Assembly: GCA_035549255.1 (NCBI GenBank) | Contig: DASZRD010000006.1 | Location: 18,546 to 82,545 of the forward strand | Origin: Minisyncoccota bacterium | Lineage (GTDB): Bacteria; Patescibacteriota; Minisyncoccia; Phycocordibacterales; SBAW01 | Direction: 5' to 3' | Length of the DNA stretch: 64,000 nucleotides | Shown: positions 2,035 through 36,177 of the stretch, in pieces | Layout: every line of letters starts with the position of its first letter | How positions within the stretch are numbered: the first letter of the stretch is position 1 | The notes under the pieces: model-generated | The model's database searches: none | What the model was told of the DNA's origin: nothing | What the model saw: the letters and a program-made list of their open reading frames with translations, nothing else | Program-made: the position numbers and the translations under genes

Positions 2035-5000
2035 CTATATCTCTTGATAGGATGGCACAATGTCCACGGTTTGTGATGCGCTTGTAGTTGTCGTACCGTC
2101 AGGCGCCGTACAGACAAGCTTGAATGTGGTCGTCTGAGTGATTATAGAAGATACGCCGGCCAAATTGCTCCAGCTTGTCGCATTGGCGGGAGAAGACTGC
2201 GGGAATCCTGCACCCCCCGGACTGCGGCTTACGGTGCAGGAGTCGCTGTTGTTACCGTTTGCCCCGGTGACCATACTCGGCACGCTCCAGGTGATAGTTG
2301 CCGTTGCGCCGGTACGCACGCGACCCGGGGAGACTCCAAGATTGCAGCTCGTTCCTGCGGAGCCATAGCAAGCGGCAAGGGAACTTGAAGGGAGCGAGGC
2401 AGCGCTCTGTTGGTCAGTGATGGTTACCGTATCGCTGCTTGGCGTACCTACGGTATAGCTCGAATCGCCGGGACTCTGCACCGCCATAGTCACCGGTTCA
2501 TTACCTTCGTACAGCGAGTCCTGGATGGGCGTCACCGTCACATCAACTGACGCGGCATTCGCAGGAATAGTGAGGGTTGTTCCGGTCGTCCCGGAGATAC
2601 TCGCGCCGGAGAGCGTGTAGTCGGTGTTGCGGACTGCATTATTTCCACCCGTAATGATATTAAAGAGCACGTTAAGTGCCGAGGAAATATCGAGATTTCC
2701 GGAACTCGGCGTATAGGTTATGACGATGATTCCGGACGCTCCTGCGCCGCCGGTACCGCATGTAGGACCATTATAGCTTGCACCGCCGCTGCTTCCTCCG
2801 CCCCCATAGAGCCCTCCTGCAGAGCCGGTTGTCATTCCATTATTCAATTTACCCGGGGCTCCTCCTCCGCCACCAGAGCCGTGCGAAGAGTCGAATTCTG
2901 TTCCCGCTCCTCCCGCGCCTCCGACATTGCTTCCGCCGGAACCGCCGCCTCCGCCTCCGCTCGTGCCTGGACCGCCGGCCTGGGTATCTCCACCATGCGC
3001 GCCCCCTCCCGTACCATCGGCATTATTGCCGCCATCGCCGCCTGTATATGCGTTATAGGGCATGTTGCCCGCAGCACCCCCGCCATTTCCCCCTCCTCCT
3101 GCGCCCGATCCGCCTAATCCTCCAATTGCATCTCCGCCAACACCGCCGTTCCCCCTTGGTCCGGCTGCGCCGCCGCCGCCAGCAGCAGTCGCCCCGTATC
3201 CCTTGCCTCCGTTTCCTCCGGAGAATTTCGTCGCGCCCTTGCCGCTGCTGGCCGCTCCGCCTGCGGCAGCAGTACTTGGCGCTCCCGAACTACCTCCCTT
3301 CCCGCCCTGCGCACCAACTACTACAGCGGTTCCCGCAAGAGATGCGCAATTTGAAGTCGAGTTGCACAGATAGGTATCACCGCCCGCAGCGCCGACATTG
3401 CAGGAAGGATACGATCCTCCCGAAGCGCCGCCGCTCCCTCCAGCGCCAACAGCAAAGGCAATAGAAGCTCCCGGCGTAAGCGATACATTCGTAGAGGAGG
3501 AAAATCCGCCGCCTCCGCCGCCTCCGCCCACCGCCGAACCGCCGCCGCCCGCGCCGATTACTTGAATGGAATTATTGGAAGAATTCCAGTCTCCAGGAAC
3601 GACCCATGGAGACGCGTTACTGGTAAACAGATAGCCGCGGCACTGCCCTCCGCCAATGGGAGACCCGAACCCGCAGGCGCTTGAGCCATTGGCGGTCCGC
3701 GTGACTGTAAATTTGCCGGTTGTTATCGGGCTTTCTGTCGCAGTCGGATCGCTCGCAGTAATCGTGACCGTCGGCGCGGATGGCGGGAACCAGACACTTG
3801 CCCCGCCGGACACCGCGGCCAGGGTAGAAGCATCCGTACACATAAGGGAGAAAGACGTAGTCTGCGAGAGCGACTGCGTATCGGCAATATTGGCCGAGCC
3901 GTCGGTTCTCCACGGCTCCATCGCATACCCTTCGAACGGGAACGCGCCGTTGATGGGCGTACGATAGATAATGTTGGTGTAGCTGGCTGAATTTACGCCG
4001 CCCAACAGATACAGATAGTTGTTGGCAACGATAATCGCGGAGTAATCGACCGCCGATGGCAGCGCTTTCCCAGTGTCATACCACGTGGTCGGGTCCGTCG
4101 TAGAAGCGGCGTATATTTCGGATGTGACGAAATTTGAAGTGCCATTGGCTGCATTTCCGCCAAACAAATAAAGAGAATCTCCGACAACCGCCAACGCAGA
4201 GTTCGACAAGGGTACCGGGAGCGTCTTGCCCGAGACTACGCTCCACGATGTTGGGTCAGACAAGGGAGCGCGCAGAATAGTATTTATCGGATTAGCGTCA
4301 TCGGTTGAGCCGCCGAATATATATACGTAATTACCCACTATGCCAACACGCCCTTTCTCTATATTAATAGGCATGGTCTTGCCAGTATTCGACCATGAGG
4401 TCGGGTCGGAAATAGGGGCGCGATAAATGACGTTAGTGGGTCCCGAGCTTAAGACCCCGCCGAAGAGGTAGACATAGCCGCCAATAATGGCAAGTTCGCT
4501 TCTCTCGATAGCGGCAGGCAACGTTTTGCCTGAGACGACGCTCCAGTTTGTCGGGTCAGACACCGGAGCGCGATAAATAAGGTTGGAGACGGAGCCGTTG
4601 TTGCATCCGCCGTACAAATAAATGTAGCTCCCCACGGCTGCCAGTTGGAAGCAGCTCATCTTGTTGGGCATGGTTTTGCTGCTGGTGTACCACTTGGTAG
4701 GATCCGTCAAATTCGAAAAGTAAATAGTGTTCTTGAAATTCGTACCATCATACCCGCCGTAGATATATATCTGCCCATTAACGGTAATGGCCTGGAATTT
4801 ATTCATGCTCGCGGGTATGGTCTTGCCGGTATTAATCCACGAAGAAACCGGATCATCCGTTCCAGAGGAGGCGGGAGCGGGAGAAACATTCATAGTGCAG
4901 GAGCCTGGCACGACGCCCGTAGCGCTCCAGGTGACCGACGTCGTACCCTGACCCGACTTCATTGAAGAGGAAGCGACTAGGACTGAAATCGAAGCCGAGC

Positions 5001-5247: not shown

Positions 5248-5337
5248 GAGCTTGTTGTGGGAGAGGTGCGGTGAAAAATGCCCCATGCACCATCAGTATA
5301 GGGTCGGACCAAATTCCCCGCTCTGCTGTTATCAACA

Positions 5338-12567: not shown

Positions 12568-12900
12568 ATGGACAACTGCATATTTTGTAAGATCGTCAGA
12601 GGCGAAATCCCCGCGCAAAAGGTCTACGAAGATGAGCATTTCATCGCCTTCCTAGACATTAATCCACGGGCCCCAGGACACACTCTTCTTATTCCCAAAC
12701 AGCATTACCAGTGGTTTATTGAATTGCCTGACGACCTATATATCGAATTGTTTAAAGAAACGAAGAAATTAGCACTTGAGCTTAAGGAAAAATACGCTGC
12801 TGATTATGTACAATTAGGTATCGTCGGGAAAGACGTTCCTCACGCTCACGTTCATCTTATACCCCGCCAACTAAACGACGCCAGCGTTCCTGCAGCTTAA
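12568..12900 (+). CDS. HIT-family (histidine triad) hydrolase
   Basis: MDNCIFCKIVRGEIP…HAHVHLIP histidine triad; an AGAGGG SD precedes the ATG. Confidence 0.8.
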   Translation: MDNCIFCKIVRGEIPAQKVYEDEHFIAFLDINPRAPGHTLLIPKQHYQWFIELPDDLYIELFKETKKLALELKEKYAADYVQLGIVGKDVPHAHVHLIPRQLNDASVPAA

Positions 12901-13973
12901 ACTTTCAACGGCTCAATACCCGGCAGTGTACCTTGTGCCAAGAACTCGAGCATCGCTCCCCCACCGGTCGAGAGAAATACTTTTTGCGGGTCGAACGTAA
13001 ACTTCGATACCGCTTCGATAGTGTTACCGCCGCCCACTACCGCACTAACACCACTCGTAGCGAGCGCTTCTGCAATCGCGTTCGTACCGGAGCTATAGCC
13101 CTGTTCGTAGAGGCCGGTAGGGCCGTTCCATAACACGAATGAGGCTTGAGAAATACGTTTAACCCACTCCTGCACGGTTGCCTCGCCGATATCAAATCCT
13201 ATTTCTCCATCAACAATATCGCCGATTGCTGCCGTGCGTTTGGTATGAGTTGATTGATTTTCAACCACAAGGTCGGTTGGCAAAACAATTTTAGGATTAG
13301 TGATGATCGCTTCCGGCGGCGGTGTCGCTGAAGAGACTACCGAGCCCACGCGCGAGCCACGCGCCTTCAGAAGTTCGTTAGCTATTGCACCACCAATGAG
13401 CAAAGTGCTGTATATCGAAACCATTTTTGTAAGAAGCGGAACTTTTGTCTCGAGCTTCGCGCCGCCCAAGATTGCGATCGCACCCTGGGGCGGTGTGAGT
13501 GCCTTCGAGAGATGCTCGACTTCTTTCTCCATAAGGAGCCCCGCATAACTCGGGAGAAACTTTGTGATGCCAACTGTGGAGGCGTGCGCGCGATGCGAGA
13601 CTGCGAATGCATCATTTACAAAAATATCCCCCTTGCTTGCGAGCTCTTTGGCAAATCCTTCATCGTTTGCTTCTTCGCGTGCATCGAAGCGCAAGTTCTC
13701 GAGCATCTCGATATCGCCCTGCACGTATTGCGCGAGCTGTTTCGCAAGTGGCGCAGTACGCAGCTCCTCAACCACTTTGCCGTCGGGCCGGCCGAGGTGC
13801 GTAAGCAGGACCACATGCGCACCGCGCTCGAGGAGAAGCTTAATCGTCGGCACCGCTGCGGTAATGCGCGTGTCGTCGGTAACGTTTCCCTCCTGTATCG
13901 GGACATTGAAGTCAACCCGCAGAAGTACGCGCTTATTACTTACGTCTGCATCACGCACCGATCTCATTTGCAT
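12897..13973 (-). CDS. pgk: Phosphoglycerate kinase
   Basis: RVDFNVP, a THLGRP-like segment, NDAFAVSHRAHAS and GGGA…GG motifs; 358 aa. Confidence 0.9.
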   Translation of the reverse strand: MQMRSVRDADVSNKRVLLRVDFNVPIQEGNVTDDTRITAAVPTIKLLLERGAHVVLLTHLGRPDGKVVEELRTAPLAKQLAQYVQGDIEMLENLRFDAREEANDEGFAKELASKGDIFVNDAFAVSHRAHASTVGITKFLPSYAGLLMEKEVEHLSKALTPPQGAIAILGGAKLETKVPLLTKMVSIYSTLLIGGAIANELLKARGSRVGSVVSSATPPPEAIITNPKIVLPTDLVVENQSTHTKRTAAIGDIVDGEIGFDIGEATVQEWVKRISQASFVLWNGPTGLYEQGYSSGTNAIAEALATSGVSAVVGGGNTIEAVSKFTFDPQKVFLSTGGGAMLEFLAQGTLPGIEPLKV

Positions 13974-14725
13974 GCCTGTAGTATAGCGAGAAATTGCTCA
14001 AGGTCAGCGCTTGCATGACCGACAAGAAAACCGGATACGCCGCTTTCTTTGACAAGCTCGGATGCATTCGCGGGCTCCACCGAGCCGCCGTAGAGGATCG
14101 GGACCTTGAGCGCCATCTTGCGGTCGAGCAGTTCCGCAAGCGTCTTTTTTATGAATATGACCATTTGCTGCAGGTCTTGCGGCTTCATAGCATCCTCCGC
14201 ACGCTTGCCTATGGCCCACACCGGCTCGTAGGCGACAACGAGCTTCTTCATCGCGCCCTTGGCTGAGTTCTTAAGCGCCGAGGAAAGCTGATCCTCGATA
14301 TCGGAAAAATGTTCGCCTTCGGCGCCGCGCTCACGCTCGCCGATGCATAACACCGGCGCAAGCCCCGCCTCCGCCGCGCGCAGGAGCTGCTCGCGCACGC
14401 TCGCCTCGCCTTCCCCGCTCGCACGGCGCTCGGAGTGGCCGACGATCACGAAGGAGGCGCCCGCCCACTTGAGCATCGTCCCCGAAACTTCGCCAGTGTG
14501 CGGCGCATCAGCGTGAGAAGAGAGCGCCTGTGCGCCCACTTCGACCGGCGAGCTCTCCAACACTTCGACCGCTTCGGGTATGAGCACGTAGGGGGGTGCA
14601 AGCCACACCTCGATGCCGCTCATGCCGCGGGCCCGCTTGCGCAGCCCCAGGAAAAACTCTCTCGCTTCCCGAGGATCGTCCATGTACATCTTCCAATTGC
14701 CGACGACGAGACGCTTTTTTGCCAT
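13964..14725 (-). CDS. tpiA: Triosephosphate isomerase
   Basis: VVGNWKM, GHSERR, AYEPVWAIG, YGGSV; overlaps pgk by 10 nt. Confidence 0.93.
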   Translation of the reverse strand: MAKKRLVVGNWKMYMDDPREAREFFLGLRKRARGMSGIEVWLAPPYVLIPEAVEVLESSPVEVGAQALSSHADAPHTGEVSGTMLKWAGASFVIVGHSERRASGEGEASVREQLLRAAEAGLAPVLCIGERERGAEGEHFSDIEDQLSSALKNSAKGAMKKLVVAYEPVWAIGKRAEDAMKPQDLQQMVIFIKKTLAELLDRKMALKVPILYGGSVEPANASELVKESGVSGFLVGHASADLEQFLAILQACK

Positions 14726-15025
14726 GGAGCAAATATACCATTCTGGGCCAAATACAAAAAACCGCCCCCCTCTTACGGGACGGTTTTTTGGTTCGCGGCC
14801 TTGGGGCTACAAACGGGTCGCTTCAATGGACGCGAGTCCCAGGACTCTTGGCCGTTGAAGTGTAGAGGATCCGTTTATAGCCCAAAAACCGCCATGATAC
14901 AGAAAGGCAACGGCAGCTTGCCATTCCGTTCCTCGAGACGCCGTACCAGCCCTCGAGTACTAAGAAGACAAGCTGCCGCGCCATCGCGCGCGAGGCCACG
15001 GAGGAGAAGCCTGCGCTGCGAGAGG

Positions 15026-15106
15026 AATTCATTCCCCTTTCAAATCTTCGAATTGCTTCAAAAACTTGAAAGGGGCAGCGATTGCAATAGTATTGATCCA
15101 TTGCAA
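15026..15106. repeat. Paired-hairpin module, copy 1 (CCCCTTTCAA…TTGAAAGGGG followed by GGCAGCGATTGCAAT…ATTGCAATCGCC)
   Basis: Two adjacent perfect inverted repeats; the same module recurs four times in a 1.1 kb stretch. Confidence 0.6.
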
Positions 15107-15119
15107 TCGCCACCGAATG

Positions 15120-15416
15120 CTAGGCGTTGTGGCACCATTTGCGATGCCTCTCGGCCTTGCGAGCCTTGGCGTCTCGGTAGCAACCCCTGTAAAAGGCCGC
15201 ATCGCGAGCATTATACTCGCGGATTTCCAGAGTCTTCGACCCGCAAACCAAAGCTGCGAGGAAAAGCCCCTGAAGGAATGCCAGCCACCGGTATTTGGTG
15301 ACCGGACCCTCTACGGAATAGTCATACTCGATCCAGACGAATTTCTCGGCCTGGTAGTACTTGCGATTCTTACTCACTTTATACTCCCTGCAGGGAACTA
15401 TTCCCCGTTCAAACAT
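15120..15416 (-). CDS. Small hypothetical protein B with one TM segment (start uncertain: ATG at 15416, or GTG at 15377 behind a GGGAG SD)
   Basis: ORF ends …AKARKAERHRKWCHNA; it is paralogous at the DNA level to the C-terminus of the next small ORF (GCCGAG.GGCAT…TGG…CAYAAC). Confidence 0.35.
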   Translation of the reverse strand: MFERGIVPCREYKVSKNRKYYQAEKFVWIEYDYSVEGPVTKYRWLAFLQGLFLAALVCGSKTLEIREYNARDAAFYRGCYRDAKARKAERHRKWCHNA

Positions 15417-15463
15417 TCGACAACTCAAATGCTTGAAAGGGGCGGCGAGACAGACTCGCCACC
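15403..15463. repeat. Paired-hairpin module, copy 2
   Basis: CCCCGTTCAAA…TTGAAAGGGG plus GGCGGCGAGACAGACTCGCCACC. Confidence 0.55.
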
Positions 15464-15478
15464 ACTGAACTCGAAGAA

Positions 15479-15697
15479 CTAACGATTGAATGGACGGAAC
15501 CTGTTATGGCCGCCCCAGATGCCAACATGCCGCTCGGCCTCGAGCGCTGAAGAAGCGAGCGAGGCAATATCAGGCCTCGCTACCTTGCGCCGCTCGGCTG
15601 GAGGAAGAGCGGAAGTTGCCGCTGAAGCGGCGTCCCGGCCGAGACGAGCATATCCGCACTGTTCACCTTGTTTGTTGAATACCAGTATCCGCCTCAT
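15479..15697 (-). CDS. Small hypothetical protein C (72 aa)
   Basis: A CAGGAGA SD lies 6 nt upstream of the ATG; MRRILVFNKQGEQCGYARLGRD…EAERHVGIWGGHNRFRPFNR; shares the ERH..W..HN C-terminal motif with ORF B. Confidence 0.45.
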   Translation of the reverse strand: MRRILVFNKQGEQCGYARLGRDAASAATSALPPAERRKVARPDIASLASSALEAERHVGIWGGHNRFRPFNR

Positions 15698-15734
15698 GCC
15701 CCATCTCCTGTGTTTGGGTATCAAGAATTGATAG

Positions 15735-15797
15735 CCCTTTCAAAACCTCCATGTAAGATGAAGGGTTTGAAAGGGCGGCAGATACATTGTCTGCCGC
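15735..15797. repeat. Paired-hairpin module, copy 3
   Basis: CCCTTTCAAAA…TTTGAAAGGG plus GCGGCAGATACATTGTCTGCCGC. Confidence 0.6.
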
Positions 15798-15828
15798 TCG
15801 AACGCCTCACTGTCAGAGCAATTGGACG

Positions 15829-15966
15829 CTACGCGAGTGAGATCTTGTATTCCAGACCGCGCGTGCGACACTCGTCGATGACGGCCTGGACGGTGCAGTT
15901 GAAGCCGACCCACGCCCGGTGCCAGCGACGGTTGCTGCCAATCTTGCGAACAGAGATCTTAATCAT
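15829..15966 (-). CDS. Small hypothetical protein D (45 aa)
   Basis: A GGAGAA SD lies 5 nt upstream of the ATG; MIKISVRKIGSNRRWHRAWVGFNCTVQAVIDECRTRGLEYKISLA; it carries a related RWHRAW.GFN motif. Confidence 0.45.
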   Translation of the reverse strand: MIKISVRKIGSNRRWHRAWVGFNCTVQAVIDECRTRGLEYKISLA

Positions 15967-16023
15967 GACACTTCTCCTCGAATTGCGACGAGCACCATGC
16001 TCGTCTTTGGGCCGCACAATGGA

Positions 16024-16084
16024 CCCATTCAAATACTCAAACTTTTAAGTACTTGAATCGGGGAGGGTTTTTAAGGAACCCTCC
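16024..16084. repeat. Paired-hairpin module, copy 4 (most diverged)
   Basis: CCCATTCAAATACT…AGTACTTGAATCGGGG plus GGAGGGTTTTTAAGGAACCCTCC. Confidence 0.5.
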
Positions 16085-16390
16085 GGAAACCTTAGAAGAG
16101 GTGCTGCTATGCAGTTGTCAGAGATCGGTTTACGAAAAAAGGCGATTGGGCAGTCCTCCTCCTAGAAGAAGTGTTCCCCAATCGCCTCTCTATATAGAAT
16201 GACTCCTATATAGGTGCTGATGGTTCGCTGCCTCCTCTAAAAGCTGCGTCCCAAACCTATGTGATCGTACCTGCTCTTAATCATACACCCTATTAGACAA
16301 TCTGTCAAGTATGTGTCTATATGATCTCCTGGTAGGGGTAAGAAGTGGCTCAAAATAAGGCTTTTTGTCCGCCTTGGCGTCGAGACGGGG

Positions 16391-18076
16391 TTATTCCCCG
16401 GTTGTTCCCGCTTGGGAGGCCCGAACTAGCTCTTCAACGCTCGTAATACCGGCCGCCGCCTTGAATAACCCGTCCTCCTCGAGAGTCAGCATCCCCTCTT
16501 CTCTCGCCTGAGCGAGCAGGTCATAGCCTGGAGCGTCTCTATATATAGAGTCGGCAAGAGCTCGGCTCGTCATACATACGCTCTGGAGCCCTACCAACCC
16601 GCGGTAACCGCCCTCGCACTCGGGGCAAGGATGCGCACGAGCGAAGAGGACTTCTTTCCATTGCATATCTTTTTCCACTATCCCTTCCTCTTTAAGAGCG
16701 GCGAGTACTCTGCCAAAATTCGCCAGGGGTTCGAGCGGCGCACCTTCCGCACGCGAGAGTCGATATTCTTCTTTCTCATGCGGGCAGAGACGCTTCACGA
16801 TATCGATCGCCACGATACCCTGGAGCGTGCTCGCAAACAACTTACTCGGGACCCACGCGCGCATGCGTTCAAGTGCAGCGACCGCCGATGGCGACTCGAT
16901 GCAGCCGATCACAAGCACGCCGCGCGACGCTGCCTGCACACACAGGAGCGCCGTGTCGTCGTCGGCAATAGAGCCGACAAAAATAATGTCCGGATCATGG
17001 CGCAGTACCGCGCGCAGCGCAGCTGCGGAAGTAATACCGAGGTCGGGCCGGATTTCAGTCTGCAACACATGCGGGAGGCGATGTTCGATCTCAGTTTCTA
17101 CCGTTGCGATCGACACCGCACGGCGGCCAAGTTCATCGAGCATCGTGTAGCCAAGTGTTGTCTTGCCAGCGTTCTCGCGGCCAGCAATGAGAATAAGCCC
17201 CGATCGTTTGGTGAGGAGCGTATGCACCGCATCAAGCGAGGCGCCATGAAAACCGAGTGACTCCAGCGCGAATCCTTTGCGTGTTTGATATACACGCCTG
17301 AGGTTAAGGAGCATCGACTCCCCGCTTGCCGTGGGGGCGCTATGTACGCGCACGTGGGCGGTCTCGCCACCAAACAGCTCCGTTGAGAACGATCCTTCCT
17401 GTGGCACATGGAGCGTGAGGGACATCTTTGCCAGATTCTTTATGCGCTCGAAAATATGCCCCGCCTCTTTGGGGAGCAGCATCGCTTCGTGCATGAGCCC
17501 CTCGATGCGATAGCGCACGAGGAGGCCTGTCTCGCGCAAGTCGAGGTGCACGCCATGCGCGTTGGAGAGGAGCGCATGAGCGAGGAGCGCATTGAGGGTC
17601 TGCTCACTCTGCGCCAGAAGAGACGCGAACTTTTCTTTGAGATATTTCTGATAGGTACGCAGGGTCTTGCGCAGAGACTCGGCAGTTGTGAGCCGTGGCA
17701 CGGGCACCAAGCCGTAGTCGCGCCGCAGGTAAGAAATCTTATCGAACGCATCGAGGTCGAGCATGGCAACCTCTACCCTGTTGCCTTCGCGGGCATACGC
17801 GACAATATTATGAGCGCGAGCAAGCGGCTCAGGAATTATAGAAAGCGTCTCGAAAGAGATCTGTTCCGGCTCGAGCTGGACGAACTCGACGCCCGATGCG
17901 TGCGCCACTGCACGACGCAACTCGTCCTCGGCGATGATTCCGCGCTTCACGAGCGCATCGTAGAGCGCCTCGCCCTGGCCGCTCTGCATGACATCGGCAA
18001 GCTGCGAGCGGGTTACAAGCCCATTGCCCACCAAAAAATCCTTAAGCGCCTTCTCTTCGACGTACATTGGCACCAT
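16391..18076 (-). CDS. pilB: GspE/PilB-family secretion/pilus-assembly ATPase
   Basis: 561 aa; N-terminal GSPII-E-like domain; P-loop GRENAGKTT (non-canonical: the usual form is GPTGSGKT); Asp/His boxes; tetracysteine CPHE…CPEC zinc motif. Confidence 0.82.
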   Translation of the reverse strand: MVPMYVEEKALKDFLVGNGLVTRSQLADVMQSGQGEALYDALVKRGIIAEDELRRAVAHASGVEFVQLEPEQISFETLSIIPEPLARAHNIVAYAREGNRVEVAMLDLDAFDKISYLRRDYGLVPVPRLTTAESLRKTLRTYQKYLKEKFASLLAQSEQTLNALLAHALLSNAHGVHLDLRETGLLVRYRIEGLMHEAMLLPKEAGHIFERIKNLAKMSLTLHVPQEGSFSTELFGGETAHVRVHSAPTASGESMLLNLRRVYQTRKGFALESLGFHGASLDAVHTLLTKRSGLILIAGRENAGKTTLGYTMLDELGRRAVSIATVETEIEHRLPHVLQTEIRPDLGITSAAALRAVLRHDPDIIFVGSIADDDTALLCVQAASRGVLVIGCIESPSAVAALERMRAWVPSKLFASTLQGIVAIDIVKRLCPHEKEEYRLSRAEGAPLEPLANFGRVLAALKEEGIVEKDMQWKEVLFARAHPCPECEGGYRGLVGLQSVCMTSRALADSIYRDAPGYDLLAQAREEGMLTLEEDGLFKAAAGITSVEELVRASQAGTTGE

Positions 18077-22597: not shown

Positions 22598-24127
22598 ATG
22601 TCGCTTACATACGCATTCATCCTCATGGGGATTGCCGGGCTCGCGGGCATTGCGATCGGATACATCTTCCGATTGCTCTTCGCGCGCGCGCAAAGGAATT
22701 CCCTCGAGGTCGAGGTTAAAAACATCCTCTTCAACGCCCGCGAGGAGGCAAAGCGGATTACTGACGAGGCCGAGAACAAGTCCCGCGAGCTCGTAGAGAG
22801 CGGCGAAGCTGCGCTTAAGGAGAAGGAGGAGAAGCTCACGCGCGCCGAGGACCGCGTCTTCAAGCGCGAGGAAGCACTCGACAAAAAGTCGTCCGAGTTC
22901 GACCGCGAAGTCGAGGGGCTGAAGTCACGTATTGAAGAAGTAAAAACGATCCGTGAGCGCGCCGAAGGGCTCGTACAGCAGCGCGGTGAGGAACTGGCTC
23001 GTGTGGCCGGCCTCACCAAAGACCAGGCTAAAGAGCAGCTCATGGCCGAAATCGAGCGCGAGAACGGCGAGGATTTCATGATGCGCGCGGCCAAGCTCGA
23101 GCGCGAGGGCTACGAGCGCCTTGAGCGCAAGGCCAAGGATATCCTTACGACCGCGATCCACCGCCTTGGCAACTCGGTCGCCTCCGACACGATGGCGACC
23201 GCGATCACGATTCCCAACGACGACATCAAGGGCAAGATCATCGGCAAGGAAGGCCGCAACATCAAGGCATTTGAGCGCGCCAGCGGCGTCGAGGTCATTA
23301 TCGACGACACGCCCGGCTCGATCGTGCTTTCTTCTTATGACCCGATCCGTCGTGCAATTGCCCGCGTCGCGCTCGAGAATCTCATCATCGACGGCCGCAT
23401 TCAGCCCGCCAAGATCGAGGATACAGTCGAGAAGGCAAAAAACGAGGTCAACAAGATCATCAAAGAGAAGGGCGAACAGGCCGCCTTCGAGGCCGGCGTG
23501 CTCAATCTCGACCCGCGGCTGATCATGATTCTCGGCCGTCTCCACTTCCGCACTTCCTACGGGCAATCGGTACTACAGCACAGCGTGGAGATGGCGCATA
23601 TCGCCGGCATGATCGCCGAAGAGCTCGGCGCCAATCCGCAAGTCGCTCGCGCCGGGGCGCTCCTTCACGACATCGGCAAAGCGCTCGACCACGAGGTCCA
23701 GGGTACGCACGTCGAGATCGGTCGCCGAGTGCTCCAGAAGTTCGGCGTTTCCGAGGAAGTGGTCAAAGCGATGCAGGCGCACCATGAGGAATACCCGTAC
23801 GAAACGACCGAGTCGGTCATCGTCCAAGTCGCAGACGCCATTTCGGGCGGCCGCCCCGGTGCACGCCGCGACAGCGTTGAGAATTATCTCAAGCGTCTCG
23901 GCGATATCGAGGCGATCGCCAACTCCTTCACCGGCGTTGAGAAGTCCTATGCTATTTCTGCCGGCCGCGAGGTGCGCGTCTTCGTCAAACCCGATGAAAT
24001 GACAGACTTCGCCGCCCGGGAATTGGCCCGCAATATAGCCCTGCGCATCGAAAACGAGCTCAAATATCCCGGCGAGATCAAAGTAACAGTGATCCGCGAG
24101 ACCCGCTCGATCGAATTTGCGCGTTAA
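22598..24127 (+). CDS. rny: Ribonuclease Y
   Basis: N-terminal TM helix, a coiled-coil segment, a KH domain (GKIIGKEGRNIKAFE) and an HD domain (HDIGK). Confidence 0.92.
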   Translation: MSLTYAFILMGIAGLAGIAIGYIFRLLFARAQRNSLEVEVKNILFNAREEAKRITDEAENKSRELVESGEAALKEKEEKLTRAEDRVFKREEALDKKSSEFDREVEGLKSRIEEVKTIRERAEGLVQQRGEELARVAGLTKDQAKEQLMAEIERENGEDFMMRAAKLEREGYERLERKAKDILTTAIHRLGNSVASDTMATAITIPNDDIKGKIIGKEGRNIKAFERASGVEVIIDDTPGSIVLSSYDPIRRAIARVALENLIIDGRIQPAKIEDTVEKAKNEVNKIIKEKGEQAAFEAGVLNLDPRLIMILGRLHFRTSYGQSVLQHSVEMAHIAGMIAEELGANPQVARAGALLHDIGKALDHEVQGTHVEIGRRVLQKFGVSEEVVKAMQAHHEEYPYETTESVIVQVADAISGGRPGARRDSVENYLKRLGDIEAIANSFTGVEKSYAISAGREVRVFVKPDEMTDFAARELARNIALRIENELKYPGEIKVTVIRETRSIEFAR

Positions 24128-28440: not shown

Positions 28441-29910
28441 ATGGAGTTGCGGCCGAGCCAAATACCTCATGAAGTGACAGACGCCATAAAAACCCTTGAA
28501 AACGCCGGATTTGAGTCCTGGGCGGTGGGGGGATGTATCCGCGACCTTCTCCTTAAGAGGTCGCCCAAAGATTGGGATATCACTACCAACGCGACACCCG
28601 ATGAGATACAGAAGGCATTCCCGGAAACGTATTACACAAACGACTTTGGCACGGTTGGCGTCGTAACCGGCTCCGAGGAGCCTGCTCTCAAGGTCATAGA
28701 AGCGACGCCATACAGGCTGGAAGGGAAGTACAGTGACGCACGCCGCCCAGATAACGTTATTTTTAGCCATAATTTGGAAGACGACCTTAAAAGACGCGAT
28801 TTTACGGTCAATGCTTTGGCCTATAGCCCCACAAAGGACAAACTGGTTGACCTTTATGATGGTATAAAGGACATAAAGGACGGCGTGCTCCGCGCGGTGG
28901 GGGAGCCGGGCGAGCGATTCGAGGAGGACGCTTTACGCATATTGCGCGCTATACGCATCGCAGCCGAGCTTAACTTCACGATAGAAGAGGGGACGCGTGC
29001 TGCTATGGCCAAGCATGCCAAACAGCTCGAGAAGATCTCCAAAGAGCGCATTCGTGACGAGTTTATCCGGATCCTCAACTCCGATAAGCCCATGAAGGCG
29101 CTTATGCTGGCTCAAAGTATCGGGGTATTGCGCTATATAGCGCCGGAACTTGAGGAGGGGATGGGGGTGGAACAGAACCAGGCGCACTCGTACGACGTCT
29201 TCGAGCACAATCTTCGGGCGCTCCAGCATGCGGCGGACAAGGGCTGGAGCCTCGATGTGCGCCTCGCAGCTCTGTTTCATGATATAGGCAAGCCCAAGAG
29301 CCGCCGCTGGTCGCCAGAGAAAGGAGATTGGACCTTCCATGGCCATGAGGTAGTAGGCGCTCGGATGACCAGGAAGGCGCTCGAAAACCTTCATTTCCCT
29401 CGGGAGCTTATCGACAAGACCGAAAAGCTCGTCCGTTGGCATATGTTCTTCTCCGATCCGGACAAAGTGACGCTTTCGGCAGTCCGGAGGATCATAAACA
29501 ACGTTTCTCGTGAAAACATCGAGGACCTTGTGGAGCTGCGCATCTGCGACCGGATCGGGACGGGGAGGCCCAAGGAGCAGCCCTTCCGCCTCCGTAAGTA
29601 CCACTCGATGATCGAACAGGCGCTGCGTGACCCCATCTCTGTCGGCATGCTCGCCGTGGATGGGAAGTCGGTCATGGAGGCAGGGGAGAAGCCGGGCCCA
29701 AGGATCGGTTGGATGCTCCACGCACTCCTTGAGGAAGTGTTGGACGATCCTTCGCGCAACACGAAAGAATATTTGGAGAAAAAAATTGTCGAACTTTCAA
29801 AACTTTCTGATGCGAAATTGCGCGCGATAGGTGAAGCAGGGAAGGAGAAAAAAGATGAGGCCGAAGAAGCGGAGATAAAAAAGCTCCGTCAAAAACACTT
29901 TGTAGAATAA
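28441..29910 (+). CDS. cca: CCA-adding tRNA nucleotidyltransferase with an HD domain
   Basis: GGCIRDLLL…DWDI head domain and an HD phosphohydrolase motif (FHDIGK). Confidence 0.9.
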   Translation: MELRPSQIPHEVTDAIKTLENAGFESWAVGGCIRDLLLKRSPKDWDITTNATPDEIQKAFPETYYTNDFGTVGVVTGSEEPALKVIEATPYRLEGKYSDARRPDNVIFSHNLEDDLKRRDFTVNALAYSPTKDKLVDLYDGIKDIKDGVLRAVGEPGERFEEDALRILRAIRIAAELNFTIEEGTRAAMAKHAKQLEKISKERIRDEFIRILNSDKPMKALMLAQSIGVLRYIAPELEEGMGVEQNQAHSYDVFEHNLRALQHAADKGWSLDVRLAALFHDIGKPKSRRWSPEKGDWTFHGHEVVGARMTRKALENLHFPRELIDKTEKLVRWHMFFSDPDKVTLSAVRRIINNVSRENIEDLVELRICDRIGTGRPKEQPFRLRKYHSMIEQALRDPISVGMLAVDGKSVMEAGEKPGPRIGWMLHALLEEVLDDPSRNTKEYLEKKIVELSKLSDAKLRAIGEAGKEKKDEAEEAEIKKLRQKHFVE

Positions 29911-31101: not shown

Positions 31102-32037
31102 CTACTTTCGCCTTATTCCGTGGAATTTTTTGTGGATCTCTCTTAGATGCTTGTCGGTGACGTGGGTATAGACCTGCGTTGTCGTGATGTTGGAGTGGCC
31201 CAGGAGTGCTTGGACAGAGCGCAAATCGGCGCCGTTCTCGAGGAGATCGGTCGCAAAGCTGTGGCGGATGACATGTGGGGTTACTTTGCGCGTGATGCCT
31301 GCCTTAGTGGCGTACTTTTTGATAATGCGCTCGACTGAGCGCGAGGTGATGCGCAGGTTTTTGGCATTCTTCGATGTTTTGCCCATTTGAATGAAGAGTG
31401 CATCGTCGATGTCGCCGCGCTTGTCGAGATAGTCTTTGACCGCCTTCTTGGCGTCGGGGGAGAGGAAGACGACGCGGACTTTCTCGCCCTTGCCGCGGAC
31501 ACTAAATTCATCGCGCGAAAGGTCGAGGTCACGATCGAGCGAGCAGAGCTCGGAGACGCGCAAGCCGGTCGAGAAGAAGAGCTCCATGATCGCGCGGTCG
31601 CGCAATGCCGGGAGGGAAGTGCCCTTGGGGCCTTGAAGCAAGCGACTAAGTTCATCCGTCGATATGAGGTCGAGGTCGCGCGCACCAACCTTCGCTAACT
31701 CAATGCGCTCGGGGTTGAGCGACTCGATATCGCGCTTGCGCAGGAATTTGAGAAATGCACGTAATGCGATGAGGTAGAAATTTTGTGTCTTGTGCTTCAT
31801 GGTGCCCGCGGTGCCCGCTTGGCGATTGAGATGGAGCCTAAACTCGCGCACCTTAGACTCCTCTATATGAGAGGGAAGTGTCGCTCTGGAGAATGCGAGG
31901 AAGCGGCTGATGTAGCGGTCATAGCTCTCGACTGTTTTGACCGAGCGGCCCTTCTCGATCTCGAGGTATTCGAGGAACTCGACTTTGAGCGATTTGAGGT
32001 CGCGGGATGCCATACGTCGCACAATATTATACGACAT
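31102..32037 (-). CDS. Tyrosine site-specific recombinase (XerC/XerD family)
   Basis: R…HxxR…Y catalytic motifs ([39 protein letters not shown]); the start may be the internal M at 32013. Confidence 0.88.
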
Positions 32038-33176: not shown

Positions 33177-33839
33177 ATGGCTATCATCAAACATAAAAGC
33201 CAGCGTGTCGGCATTTTCATAGACACGCAAAACCTCTACCACAGCGCGAAAAATCTTTATAAATCAAAAGTGAACTTCGGCAACGTCGTTGCCAAGGCGC
33301 TCGCCGGGCGCCAGCTCATCCGCGCGATCGCGTACGTCATACGCACCGAGAGCGAGGAGGAGAAAGGCTTCTTCGAGGCGCTCAACAAGCTCGGCATCGA
33401 GACCAAGGTGAAGGACATCCGCGTCTTCGCCGGCGGCGCCAAGAAGGCGGACTGGGATATCGGCATGGCGATCGACGCGATCGCGATGTCCGAGAAGCTC
33501 GACGCGATCGTGCTCGCGACCGGCGACGGCGACTTCGTGCCGCTGGTCGAATACCTCAAGTACACGCAGGGGACGCAGGTCGAGGTCATTGCCTTCGGCA
33601 AATCCGCGGCCGGCGTGTTGCGCGAGTCGGTCGACGACTTCATCGACATGTGCGACAACCCCAAGGAATATCTCATCGGCTACCGAGGGGGAGGGCGCTG
33701 GATACCAAGCTTCACCTCGGGCTCCAACGACCGCCCGCAGAACGCCGACACGAGCCCGCTTAATACCGAGGCGAAGGAGGACTTCGAAGATATGAGCGGA
33801 GACGGGGAAGACCCGGCGATAAAGATGTCGGGAGAGTAA
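33177..33839 (+). CDS. NYN-domain (LabA-like) putative ribonuclease with an acidic C-terminal tail
   Basis: VGIFIDTQNLYHS…IVLATGDGDFVPLVEYL. Confidence 0.72.
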   Translation: MAIIKHKSQRVGIFIDTQNLYHSAKNLYKSKVNFGNVVAKALAGRQLIRAIAYVIRTESEEEKGFFEALNKLGIETKVKDIRVFAGGAKKADWDIGMAIDAIAMSEKLDAIVLATGDGDFVPLVEYLKYTQGTQVEVIAFGKSAAGVLRESVDDFIDMCDNPKEYLIGYRGGGRWIPSFTSGSNDRPQNADTSPLNTEAKEDFEDMSGDGEDPAIKMSGE

Positions 33840-33990: not shown

Positions 33991-36177
33991 ATGATGCAAA
34001 AGAAAACGTACGAGCTCGAGGTCGGCGGCAAGAAAATGATTGCCGAGTTCAGCGACTTGGCCGAGCAGGCGAGCGGCTCAGTCATACTGCGCTATGGGAA
34101 CACGGCCGTGCTTGCGACCGCGGTGATGTCGAGCAAAACTCGCGACGATATCGATTACTTCCCGCTCACGGTCGACTACGAAGAAAGATTCTATGCCGCG
34201 GGACAAATCCTGGGCAGCCGCTTCGTGCGTCGCGAGGGGCGCCCCTCCGAGCAAGCGATACTCTCCGGCCGCGTCGTCGACCGCACGATTAGGCCGCTCT
34301 TCCCGCAGCATATCCGCAACGAGGTGCAGGTCATCATCACCGTGCTCGCGCTCGATGAGGAAGACCCCGACCAGATCGCGGTCAACGCCGCCTCGCTCGC
34401 GCTGGGTACCTCTAATATTCCGTGGGCCGGACCCGTTGCATCGGTGCGCATAGGGCGGGGGAGCGACAACCAATTCATAATCAATCCTACTTACAAAGAG
34501 CGTGACGCTTCGACGCTCGATATACTCGCGTGCGGCAAAGACTCTACTATTAATATGATCGAGGTCGCGGCTGACGAAGCGTCTGAAGACGAAGTTGCTG
34601 CGGGCTTCGCGCGCGCCGTAGAGGAGCATAACAAAATTATCGCGTGGCAGCAGGCTATTATCGCAGAAATAGGAAAGGAGAAGACTAATGCAGCCAAGCC
34701 TGAGATCCCCGCGGCATTGCAAGAACTTTTTGACACAGAGTTTGCGCAGAAAGTGCGTGATGCGGTCTTCTGCGGCGTTGCTGGCAAAGACGCGATCCAT
34801 CATGCGCAAGATGAGTGGAAGACAAAATTGAAGGAGGAGCAGTATGCGGACATCAACCCGGGTGTCGCGAAGCGATTTTTCGACGACAAGGTCGATGAAG
34901 AGATTCATCGCGGCGCGATCGAGGACAACAAGCGCCCCGACAACAGAGCGTTCGGCGAGATCCGCCCTTTGTATGCGCAAGCCGGGGGCGTATCAGACAT
35001 CCTCCATGGCTCAGGCATCTTTTATCGCGGCGGGACGCATGTGTTCACCGCGCTTACGCTCGGCGGTCCGGGCGACAGCCAAGTCGTCGACACGATGGAA
35101 GAGCAGGATGTGAAGCAGCGCTTCATGCATCACTACAACTTCCCGCCGTACTCGGCCGGCGAGACCGGCCGCATGGGCGGGCTCAACCGCCGCATGATCG
35201 GGCACGGCGCGCTTGCGCAGAAGGCGCTCGAAGCGGTGATCCCGCCTGCAGAGCAATTCCCGTACACGATACGCCTCGTCTCCGAGTGCTTTGCCTCCAA
35301 TGGCTCGACCTCGATGGGCTCGGTATGTGCCTCGACGCTCGCGCTCATGGACGGCGGCGTGCCGATCAAGCGCGCGGTCGCAGGTATCGCGATGGGCGTC
35401 ATGACGCACAACGGAGAAAATAAAGTATTGACCGATATCCAGGGGCCGGAAGACGAGTTCGGCGGGATGGACTTCAAGGTTGCCGGTACGCGCGAGGGCA
35501 TCACCGCGATCCAGCTCGATATTAAACTCGACGGCATCCCGCTTGAAGTATTGAGCGAGGCGCTCGGTGGTGCTAAGAAAGCGCGTTTCGAAATATTGGA
35601 TGTGATTGAGGCTACGATCGCGGCACCGCGCGCCAATATTTCGCCGCGCGCGCCGGAGATTGTCACGATGAAAGTGAAGCCCGACCAGATCGGCCTCGTT
35701 ATCGGTGGCGGCGGCAAGACCATCAATGGCATCAAAGACACGTCTGAGGTCGACGATATTACGATCGAGGATGACGGCTCGGTATTTATTACCGGCAAGA
35801 ACGGCGCTGCGCAGATGGCCAAGGCCATGATCGAGGCACTCGTGAAGGAATACAAGCCGGGGGAAATCTATGACGGCGAGGTAACGCGGCTCATGGACTT
35901 CGGCGCGTTCGTGCGCATCGGCCCGGGCAAAGATGCTGAGGGCTTGGTGCACGTTTCTGAAGTCGCACCGTTCCGCATCGACAAGATATCTGACGCGGTT
36001 AAGGTAGGGGATAAAGTACGGGTTATGATAAAGGAGATAGACGAGAAAGGCCGCATCAACCTCTCCATTAAAACTGTCGATCCGGATTTCGCGTCTCGCA
36101 AAGGCTTGCTGCCTTCGACACAACCCCATGCCTCAAGACCCGATCGTCCCCAGCGCCCCCCAAGGAGGGAGTTCTAA
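33991..36177 (+). CDS. pnp: Polyribonucleotide nucleotidyltransferase (PNPase)
   Basis: 728 aa; two RNase PH domains, KH (GGGGKTI) and S1 domains. Confidence 0.95.
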   Translation: MMQKKTYELEVGGKKMIAEFSDLAEQASGSVILRYGNTAVLATAVMSSKTRDDIDYFPLTVDYEERFYAAGQILGSRFVRREGRPSEQAILSGRVVDRTIRPLFPQHIRNEVQVIITVLALDEEDPDQIAVNAASLALGTSNIPWAGPVASVRIGRGSDNQFIINPTYKERDASTLDILACGKDSTINMIEVAADEASEDEVAAGFARAVEEHNKIIAWQQAIIAEIGKEKTNAAKPEIPAALQELFDTEFAQKVRDAVFCGVAGKDAIHHAQDEWKTKLKEEQYADINPGVAKRFFDDKVDEEIHRGAIEDNKRPDNRAFGEIRPLYAQAGGVSDILHGSGIFYRGGTHVFTALTLGGPGDSQVVDTMEEQDVKQRFMHHYNFPPYSAGETGRMGGLNRRMIGHGALAQKALEAVIPPAEQFPYTIRLVSECFASNGSTSMGSVCASTLALMDGGVPIKRAVAGIAMGVMTHNGENKVLTDIQGPEDEFGGMDFKVAGTREGITAIQLDIKLDGIPLEVLSEALGGAKKARFEILDVIEATIAAPRANISPRAPEIVTMKVKPDQIGLVIGGGGKTINGIKDTSEVDDITIEDDGSVFITGKNGAAQMAKAMIEALVKEYKPGEIYDGEVTRLMDFGAFVRIGPGKDAEGLVHVSEVAPFRIDKISDAVKVGDKVRVMIKEIDEKGRINLSIKTVDPDFASRKGLLPSTQPHASRPDRPQRPPRREF

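Follow-up and report, generated by a model that had tools for sequence, protein, structure and literature searches.

The RNase III sites of bacteriophages, known from the T7 early region (R0.3–R1.3) and from Bacillus phage SP82, are imperfect intercistronic hairpins of about 20 bp in long transcripts. They recur between genes with shared features of sequence and structure, and the stem that remains protects the upstream 3′ end and can free a downstream ribosome-binding site. In Firmicutes, RNase Y and PNPase mature operons such as cggR-gapA of Bacillus subtilis and the sae operon of Staphylococcus aureus; stem-loops position the endonucleolytic cuts and flanking hairpins give the cistrons different stabilities. 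Here, a recurrent two-hairpin module is described from a 64-kb stretch of a Candidatus Paceibacterota genome (contig DASZRD010000006.1), a member of the Candidate Phyla Radiation (CPR); this whole stretch is called the window below. Four modules lie in the 1.66-kb gap between tpiA and pilB (the island), each composed of a GC-rich hairpin of variable sequence (hairpin A) followed by a conserved hairpin (hairpin B), and small open reading frames (ORFs) occupy the intervals.

Like the T7 and SP82 sites, the modules recur between genes and share sequence and structure. However, they belong to a cellular CPR genome without phage matches, the abutting GC-rich hairpin is always present, and cleavage is only proposed. 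The mode of action proposed below also resembles Firmicutes operon maturation, and the window itself encodes RNase Y and PNPase, whereas the Firmicutes sites are not a repeated conserved motif. The element is a new RNA-type motif, and its setting too is of a new kind for CPR bacteria. CPR (Patescibacteria) cannot be grown alone and, to our knowledge, almost nothing is known of their regulation at the RNA level or of the mechanisms that vary their gene content. The island offers a concrete structured element that is backed by covariation, absent from Rfam and tied to a strain-variable locus of orphan mini-proteins.

A conserved hairpin pair

The four modules (M1–M4) are composed as follows, with R1 denoting the covariance model used to score hairpin B.

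16062–16084, minus strand: hairpin A of M4, GGAGGGUU-loop-AACCCUCC; an identical copy occurs in locus L013
16024–16061, minus strand: conserved hairpin B of M4; R1 51.0 bits on the minus strand versus 24.7 on the plus strand
15776–15797, minus strand: hairpin A of M3, GCGGCAGA-loop-UCUGCCGC; L013 has the same hairpin after ORF D′
15735–15775, minus strand: conserved hairpin B of M3; R1 54.3 bits
15443–15463, minus strand: hairpin A of M2, GGUGGCGAG-loop-CUCGCCGCC
15403–15442, minus strand: conserved hairpin B of M2; R1 56.4 bits
15076–15114, minus strand: hairpin A of M1, GGUGGCGAUUGCAAU-loop-AUUGCAAUCGCUGCC
15034–15075, minus strand: conserved hairpin B of M1, with a GCAA tetraloop; R1 63.0 bits; the last modules of L013, L004 and L034 are orthologous to it

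M1 is the last module of the array in the window, and no ORF follows it. A first-pass annotation, made from the DNA letters without database searches, had reported four such modules, and all four were recovered as CCC(N)TTCAA…TTGAA(N)GGG palindromes at plus-strand positions 15034–15075, 15403–15442, 15735–15775 and 16024–16061, each followed in plus-strand order by a second GC-rich hairpin. The description of this second hairpin as GGCGGC…GCC does not extend to the fourth module, which has GGAGGG…CCCTCC instead. The proposed spacing of 330–380 bp was not reproduced by the repeat finder, which measured 369, 331 and 289 bp, and the drop in GC content is present but modest (island 0.529, window 0.563). 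A pattern scan of all 64 kb confined the full TTCAA-N12–34-TTGAA palindrome to the island. R1 matched only the four modules, all of them within 1.3 kb, and had no match in the remaining 62.7 kb; shuffles of the window gave an expectation of 0 chance matches to the strict 22-base pattern. The module is therefore a real, non-random feature of this DNA.

Hairpin B is a 19-bp stem that reads CCCCUUUCAAGnnnUUnA-loop-UnGAnnnUUUGAAAGGGG on the gene strand, with a base of CCCCTTTCAAG…TTTGAAAGGGG. Its structure was examined in an alignment of 26 distinct copies from related Paceibacterota contigs. Across this alignment, 90.9% of the cells of the stem are paired, and compensatory changes affect 9 of the 19 pairs (64 cells). 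The covariation score was 0.303; shuffled alignments gave 0.101, with none of 500 reaching the observed value, and controls with slid partners stayed at or below 0.083. The UUCAAG/UUUGAA and UUNA/UNGA segments are near-invariant, and the three pairs between them vary, as does the loop, which ranges from 4 to 13 nt. Pair 15:39 is frequently mismatched. Two wobble pairs are fixed on the gene strand, G14.U40 in 24 copies and U19.G35 in all 26. The compensatory changes and the conserved wobbles together indicate selection on a folded strand and not on duplex sequence.

The folding energies point to the same strand. The sense-strand hairpin B is the stabler one in 25/26 copies (mean −21.2 versus −15.4 kcal/mol with RNA parameters), and DNA parameters gave the same count. 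In the window, the RNA of whole modules folds at −50, −41.2, −37.1 and −31.6 kcal/mol on the minus strand and at −30.7, −27.5, −35.2 and −23.7 kcal/mol on the plus strand, and the minus-strand z-scores range from −4.7 to −8.6. The functional strand is the minus (gene) strand, on which hairpin A precedes hairpin B.

Hairpin A was predicted 0–3 nt upstream of hairpin B in each of the 28 modules examined, and its free energy was at or below −9.5 kcal/mol in 24 of them; as a control, random positions in the same loci passed a lenient version of the test in 37.6% of cases and a stricter, simple-hairpin version in 7.9%. Its sequence is variable, although many copies have GGYGGCGA…TCGCCRCC ends, and in orthologous copies the stem is kept while the inner sequences differ. 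A small third hairpin (C) frequently begins at or just past the GGGG of hairpin B, and the Shine-Dalgarno (SD) sequence and start codon of the next ORF usually lie 25–75 nt downstream of the module. All modules within any one locus are co-oriented.

The nature of the module was further delimited by what it does not resemble. An intrinsic terminator was considered and rejected: hairpin A has no U-tract, which the clear terminators of this genome possess; the sequence directly 3′ of it is CCCCUUUCAAG, the 5′ arm of hairpin B; and a terminator scan flagged no module, whereas the island terminators at 14755–14790 and 16133–16188 have U-runs. The earlier statement that the modules lack a consistent T-tract and are not classical terminators thus held. 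The same applied to the exclusion of CRISPR repeats, given a mean column identity of 66% among the hairpin B repeats, spacings of 289–369 bp and ORF-encoding intervals. Searches against Rfam gave no relevant match at E ≤ 10 over 13500–17500 or at E ≤ 1 over eight related loci, and at the gathering threshold the whole window returned tRNAs only, with nothing for the modules or for the leader RNA described below.

Small ORFs and variation among relatives

The intervals between the modules carry three small ORFs, all on the minus strand and each led by an SD sequence, as the first-pass annotation had described.

15829–15966, minus strand: ORF D, 45 aa, SD GAGGAGAAG; orphan
15479–15697, minus strand: ORF C (putative), 72 aa, SD AGGAG
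15120–15377, minus strand: ORF B, 85 aa, GTG start, SD AGGGAG; lineage-restricted orphan

ORF B has a syntenic homologue of 70% identity (cluster P0002), in which 62/85 residues are identical and 17 codon changes are synonymous; the GTG start and the SD are also conserved in that lineage. Judged by this pattern of substitution, ORF B is a real gene. No relative beyond the P0002 lineage was found among 5.8 × 10⁹ word-indexed proteins or, with a HMMER profile, among 1.8 × 10⁹ representative proteins. ORF B has one hydrophobic segment followed by a basic C-terminal helix, and structure prediction gave a long helix with low confidence. ORF D has a weak positional homologue in L013 (14/43 identical) and a predicted compact β-β-α-β fold (AlphaFold2 mean confidence, pLDDT, 83), for which no significant fold match was obtained in the PDB. 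The coding status of ORF C is only putative, because the word-indexed protein search gave no homologue; the public record does not call it as a gene. For ORFs B, C and D together, the word-indexed searches returned only the one syntenic lineage. Searches of Pfam, PHROGs and PADLOC with the window ORFs and ten island ORFs of relatives gave sub-threshold noise only, except for the toxin-antitoxin pairs of L026 (below).

Across loci, the ORFs between modules encode 31–165 aa and are mutually unrelated orphans, each with its own SD; several of these mini-proteins carry hydrophobic, likely membrane, segments. The first-pass annotation had grouped ORFs B, C and D into one motif family and had suggested a tandemly duplicated small-protein cassette with conserved RNA structures. 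The latter part of this suggestion fits, in that conserved RNA-type structures lie between SD-led ORFs in a cassette-like layout; the ORFs, however, are not tandem duplicates of one family. BLASTP of B against C gave no alignment at E ≤ 100, and their reported DNA similarity was reduced to two short two-copy matches of 21–25 nt at 72–81% identity. Neither motif is kept in the respective orthologue, since ERH..W..HN reads ERRRQWCHNR in P0002 and RWHRAW.GFN reads KTWKQVWKGAA in L013. Tandem small-protein paralogues and a type I toxin-antitoxin system were likewise rejected, as B and C cannot be aligned and B, C and D share no Pfam, PHROGs or PADLOC family.

Related islands were found by several routes. 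The contigs of the P0002 cluster (L003–L012) share the synteny pilB, small ORFs, ORF B homologue and tpiA. Their island contains five or more two-hairpin modules of this kind, with different ORFs between them, namely proteins of 68 and 72 aa, each with two hydrophobic segments, and one ORF of 31 aa. A scan of a genome collection with TpiA gave a single locus, L013, from a Paceibacterota metagenome-assembled genome with 87% TpiA identity and two modules. One metagenome scan with the strict hairpin B pattern yielded 21 contigs, about 15 of which are clear family members that read GC hairpin, hairpin B, untranslated region (UTR), SD and ATG; further copies were added with a looser regular expression and R1. 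Loci with sufficient flanking sequence all have the modules in the island directly upstream of tpiA, and in four lineages pilB was seen at its other end. No blastn match to the island was obtained in phage genomes or plasmids; of two pattern scans of viral contigs, one gave nothing and the other two 13.6-bit matches at chance level.

The relatives differ from the window by whole gene units. In an all-against-all blastn comparison, L013 lacked a 688-nt block comprising the ORF C and ORF B units. The homology blocks overlap by 15 nt at the junction of hairpins A and B, and the junction module of L013 joins the hairpin A of M3 to the hairpin B of M1. In L018 and L022, homology is lost at the 3′ end of hairpin B. 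The breakpoints therefore fall on either side of hairpin B, at module edges. An "empty" unit lies between modules b and c of L004. The 72-aa ORF of L004 and L013 shows a clear third-position bias: 34 differences fall at the third codon position, 14 at the first and 12 at the second. A module resembles its orthologues more closely than its neighbours in the array, and the 72-aa ORF, ORF D and ORF B keep their relative order, which fits vertical descent with insertions and deletions at repeats. Across lineages, hairpin B is kept while the ORFs are swapped, lost or unique, the very outcome that the first-pass annotation had set against its small-protein cassette.

Two further kinds of variation were observed. 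Different contigs of the L003–L012 population have alternative 31-aa ORFs, E1 and E2 (MYSWSDSRGCVHFGRT… and MYVQDRYGNLHFGRT…), between identical flanks, some 300 nt upstream of their ORF B homologue; in L003, precisely this site is an N-gap, consistent with a repeat or variant that broke the assembly. In L026, two toxin-antitoxin pairs, the first with a RelE/HigB-like toxin and the second with a PIN (VapC) toxin, are placed between modules and encoded on the opposite strand (563–1060 and 1434–2015).

Possible roles of the module

Three features outside the modules bear on their possible role.

16280–16308, minus strand: sigma-70 promoter at the island head, TTGACA-17-TATGAT with a TG-extended −10; 11/12 matches
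16133–16272, minus strand: structured leader RNA of about 140 nt; fold z-score −4.06
14755–14790, both strands: bidirectional intrinsic terminator at the island end, just upstream of tpiA, with 14-nt arms that are 93% complementary and T-runs on both strands

In the promoter scan, the head promoter was the sole minus-strand promoter-like site in the island. It occurs at the same position, with the TG extension, in L003/L004, L013, L021, L022 and L033, and promoter and leader together are conserved in six other lineages. Between the units, the scan found no promoter match and there is no room for a promoter; free-standing structured small RNAs (sRNAs), the other option raised in the first-pass annotation, are therefore unlikely. 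The closing terminator is conserved in L013 and L004.

With confidence somewhat short of even, we read the module as an intercistronic RNA element for processing, stability or translation insulation in a polycistronic array of variable small genes. The modules probably punctuate one long transcript; we infer transcription, cleavage and protection from the arrangement of the locus. The whole island would be transcribed as one polycistronic minus-strand RNA from the head promoter. Hairpin B, which spans about two helical turns and has sequence-specific features, could be the recognition or cleavage site of a double-strand-specific or structure-guided ribonuclease, with RNase III-type and RNase Y-type enzymes as candidates, or the site of an RNA-binding protein. 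Hairpin A would then stay as a 3′ cap that shields the upstream cistron from 3′-exonucleases such as PNPase, and the remaining structure would set the 5′ end of the downstream cistron and its access to ribosomes. In this way, a single promoter could serve unrelated small genes, each with its own level of expression. As direct repeats, the modules are also the sites at which gene units are gained, lost or exchanged.

The locus shows the geometry of RNase III-type sites, that is, a covarying 19-bp stem of about two turns between co-oriented ORFs behind a single upstream promoter. The window also encodes RNase Y, a CCA-adding/poly(A) polymerase, an NYN-domain nuclease and PNPase (22598–24127, 28441–29910, 33177–33839 and 33991–36177), and RNase Y and PNPase are the enzymology that such punctuation needs. 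All four of these RNA-metabolism genes are at most 20 kb away from the island.

Several observations weigh against this punctuation of a single transcript. No RNase III gene was seen in the 64-kb window. The 3′ end of the leader forms a long terminator-like hairpin (16141–16188) followed by a U-run (16133–16140), so read-through into the array is assumed. The conservation of sequence in hairpin B implies a trans-acting factor, and none was identified from the present data. The reverse-oriented toxin-antitoxin pairs of L026 are not required by pure mRNA punctuation and resemble integron arrays. Finally, beyond the two fixed wobble columns, C.A/A.C cells (17) outnumber G.U cells (4) among the non-Watson-Crick cells on the sense strand, which reduces the strand argument to the fixed wobbles and the overall stability.

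The alternative that accounts best for the varying gene content is an integron-like system, which we regard as unlikely but deserving of the most serious consideration among the rivals. The modules would be recombination sites analogous to attC that fold as single-stranded DNA, and a recombinase would capture, excise and reshuffle cassettes behind the fixed promoter, with the leader, or an extra hairpin present in relatives (below), in the role of attI. The layout is indeed that of a cassette array, with co-oriented, mostly promoterless orphan ORFs, each with its own SD, behind one strong promoter and with content that varies between relatives. Integron arrays, including the integrase-less clusters of attC sites known as CALINs, share this layout with the island, as well as repeats that are conserved in their ends and structure and variable in their centres, and cassette content that varies and includes toxin-antitoxin cassettes. 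The whole-unit differences of L013 (an indel flanked by a 15-nt repeat where hairpins A and B meet), L018 and L022, the E1/E2 alleles between identical flanks, the empty unit of L004 and the reverse-oriented toxin-antitoxin cassettes of L026, as in chromosomal integrons, would all be expected from such a system.

Several features of the repeats, however, argue against it. The integron R″/R′ consensus is RYYYAAC/GTTRRRY; neither box was found, and the hairpin B consensus has no AAC/GTT core. In attC, the recombinogenic bottom strand folds so that some bases are extrahelical and a central spacer stays unpaired (PMC2727003). Here the comparison points both ways: the bottom strand of hairpin B forms a stem of 10–11 bp above which the two invariant wobbles become fixed A.C mismatches, an arrangement loosely like an attC R-box and its unpaired spacer, and it has no extrahelical bases. 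Moreover, the integron substrate is the bottom strand, whereas here the ORF-sense strand is the stabler one in nearly every copy, under DNA parameters too, and attC has no counterpart of hairpin A, so that the two-hairpin architecture itself sets the island apart. No integrase gene, and thus no IntI, adjoins the array, whose neighbours are pilB and tpiA. The sole tyrosine-recombinase motif in the 64 kb lies 15 kb away (31102–32037, minus strand) and is XerC/D-like, scoring 244 bits as XerC/D, below the equivalog cutoffs, and 135.9 against the TIGR02249 integron integrase with its cutoff of 265. The breakpoints are also not at one fixed point; they lie on both sides of hairpin B, as expected of homologous recombination between repeats, and the likeness of orthologous modules and the kept order of units fit vertical descent with insertions and deletions.

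A variant would relax the link to integrons, and we consider it slightly less probable still. The module would be a gene-cassette capture site of CPR bacteria, like attC in function and unrelated to it in sequence and architecture, served by a non-integron recombinase encoded elsewhere. As part of the same reading, and with the same reserve, the conserved promoter and leader might act as a platform for both expression and insertion.

The three remaining explanations are less likely. Control of elongation is improbable: the paired stem-loops would act in cis on RNA polymerase as a put-like antiterminator, attenuator or pause and would set how far transcription reaches along the array. In phage HK022, processive antitermination is brought about by put RNA, which acts in cis while the transcript is being made; its two stem-loops adjoin almost without a linker, a geometry matched by the 0–3 nt between hairpins A and B. 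The array is also rich in terminator-like GC hairpins and opens with a conserved leader and terminator hairpin, and the sequence conservation of hairpin B is what would be expected of an RNA that contacts a conserved protein surface. However, hairpin A has no U-tract, so there is possibly nothing to antiterminate. Furthermore, a genome has put at one or two sites, downstream of its early promoters, whereas the module stands before every gene and resembles in sequence neither put nor any antiterminator in Rfam.

It is more doubtful still that the units are autonomous in the manner of phage morons, with hairpin A as the terminator of the upstream gene and the DNA of hairpin B as an unconventional promoter or operator for the next. 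The order of elements would suit this idea, since a terminator-like hairpin, a conserved element of about 45 bp, a UTR of 25–75 nt and an SD-led ORF follow one another. In the 3′ arm, TTGAAA is similar to a −35 hexamer, and, read by eye, …GAAAGGGGA loosely recalls the starts of phage-type promoters. Nevertheless, the minus-strand scan found no promoter between units, the missing U-tract makes hairpin A a poor candidate for the terminator, the loop length of 4–13 nt is incompatible with fixed promoter spacing, and the compensatory changes and conserved wobbles indicate selection on the folded strand. A sigma-70 promoter within either arm of hairpin B was separately rejected, as inspection by eye of the four window modules and of L013_1 showed no −10 at a fixed distance and the loop is variable.

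Selfish intergenic repeats of the REP/BIME, ERIC, BOX or miniature inverted-repeat transposable element kind, piled up in a permissive region without a host role, are the least probable explanation. The modules do resemble REP/BIME, ERIC, BOX and Correia elements in being imperfect palindromes that lie in transcribed intergenic DNA, several to a locus; elements of those kinds can increase the stability of upstream mRNA or serve as RNase III substrates. Those elements, however, are dispersed genome-wide and copied whole, whereas the modules have no copies outside the island in 64 kb, and in relatives every module with a visible flank lies in this island, upstream of tpiA. The modules also keep a uniform orientation and a fixed geometry to stop and start codons, are only half conserved in sequence (hairpin A is not, so the module is not a copied unit), and show no terminal inverted repeats, target duplications, or phage, plasmid or viral matches.

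As a processing or stability signal, the module would be a compact natural part for operon punctuation and would give access to the RNA metabolism of CPR bacteria. As a recombination site, it would solve independently, for a second time, the cassette-array problem that integrons have solved. Under either reading, the covariance model allows such arrays to be found and catalogued in metagenomes.

Leader, tail and neighbouring genes

The remaining features of the island and its flanks are as follows.

16391–18076, minus strand: pilB
16114–16128, minus strand: near-invariant segment past the leader hairpin, CCGAUCUCUGACAAC (CCGRUCUCUGACAAC)
14796–15033, minus strand: non-coding tail, partly conserved, e.g. 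UGGCGGUUUUUGGGCUAUAAACGGAUCCUCUA, UGUGCGUACCCCCGCC…
13964–14725, minus strand: tpiA
12897–13973, minus strand: pgk

The leader hairpin has seven pairs with compensatory changes among six homologues, and the leader also contains UUUAGAGGAGG and a CUAUAUAG…CUAUAUAG hairpin. It could be a riboswitch or attenuator of the array, or a separate sRNA. In most relatives, the leader is followed by an extra conserved long hairpin that is missing from the window, GUUGUUCCUCGUYGCCGGRCURAC-loop-GUYGGYACGGUACGAGGG. It was located in L004 (2190–2270), L013 (5140–5215) and L022 (ca. 5250–5300), and also in L015/L020, L018, L021 and L033. It occupies the place of hairpin B before the first gene unit, and the two are positionally interchangeable.

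The tail has ORF-less counterparts in L013 (5845–5940) and L004 (3765–3960); a possible extra terminator lies within it, as does a hairpin, GGGCUAUAAACGG…CCGUUUGUAGCCC. The tail hairpin of the window carries an inserted TTCAA…TTGAA palindrome (14822–14859), which is not a module; it was considered as a fifth, degenerate copy and rejected, as R1 gave no detection there.

Downstream of the tail, tpiA is preceded by an extended −10 (TGGTATATT; 14723–14740, minus strand) that ends 6 nt before the ATG, without an SD. L013 and L004 are arranged likewise. The proximity to the ATG and the missing SD suggest that the tpiA-pgk mRNA may be leaderless. The TpiA protein of the window has an exact match in GCA_964442315.1, and ORF D is listed at NCBI as a protein of "Candidatus Paceibacterota bacterium", in line with the assignment of the window to this group. 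Contig L002, from a second sample (Logan SRR12170510), is identical to the window in DNA through the island, tpiA and pgk, and has a HIT-family gene (2710–3042) after pgk where the window has recJ, a difference that would reflect either a local rearrangement or a strain difference.

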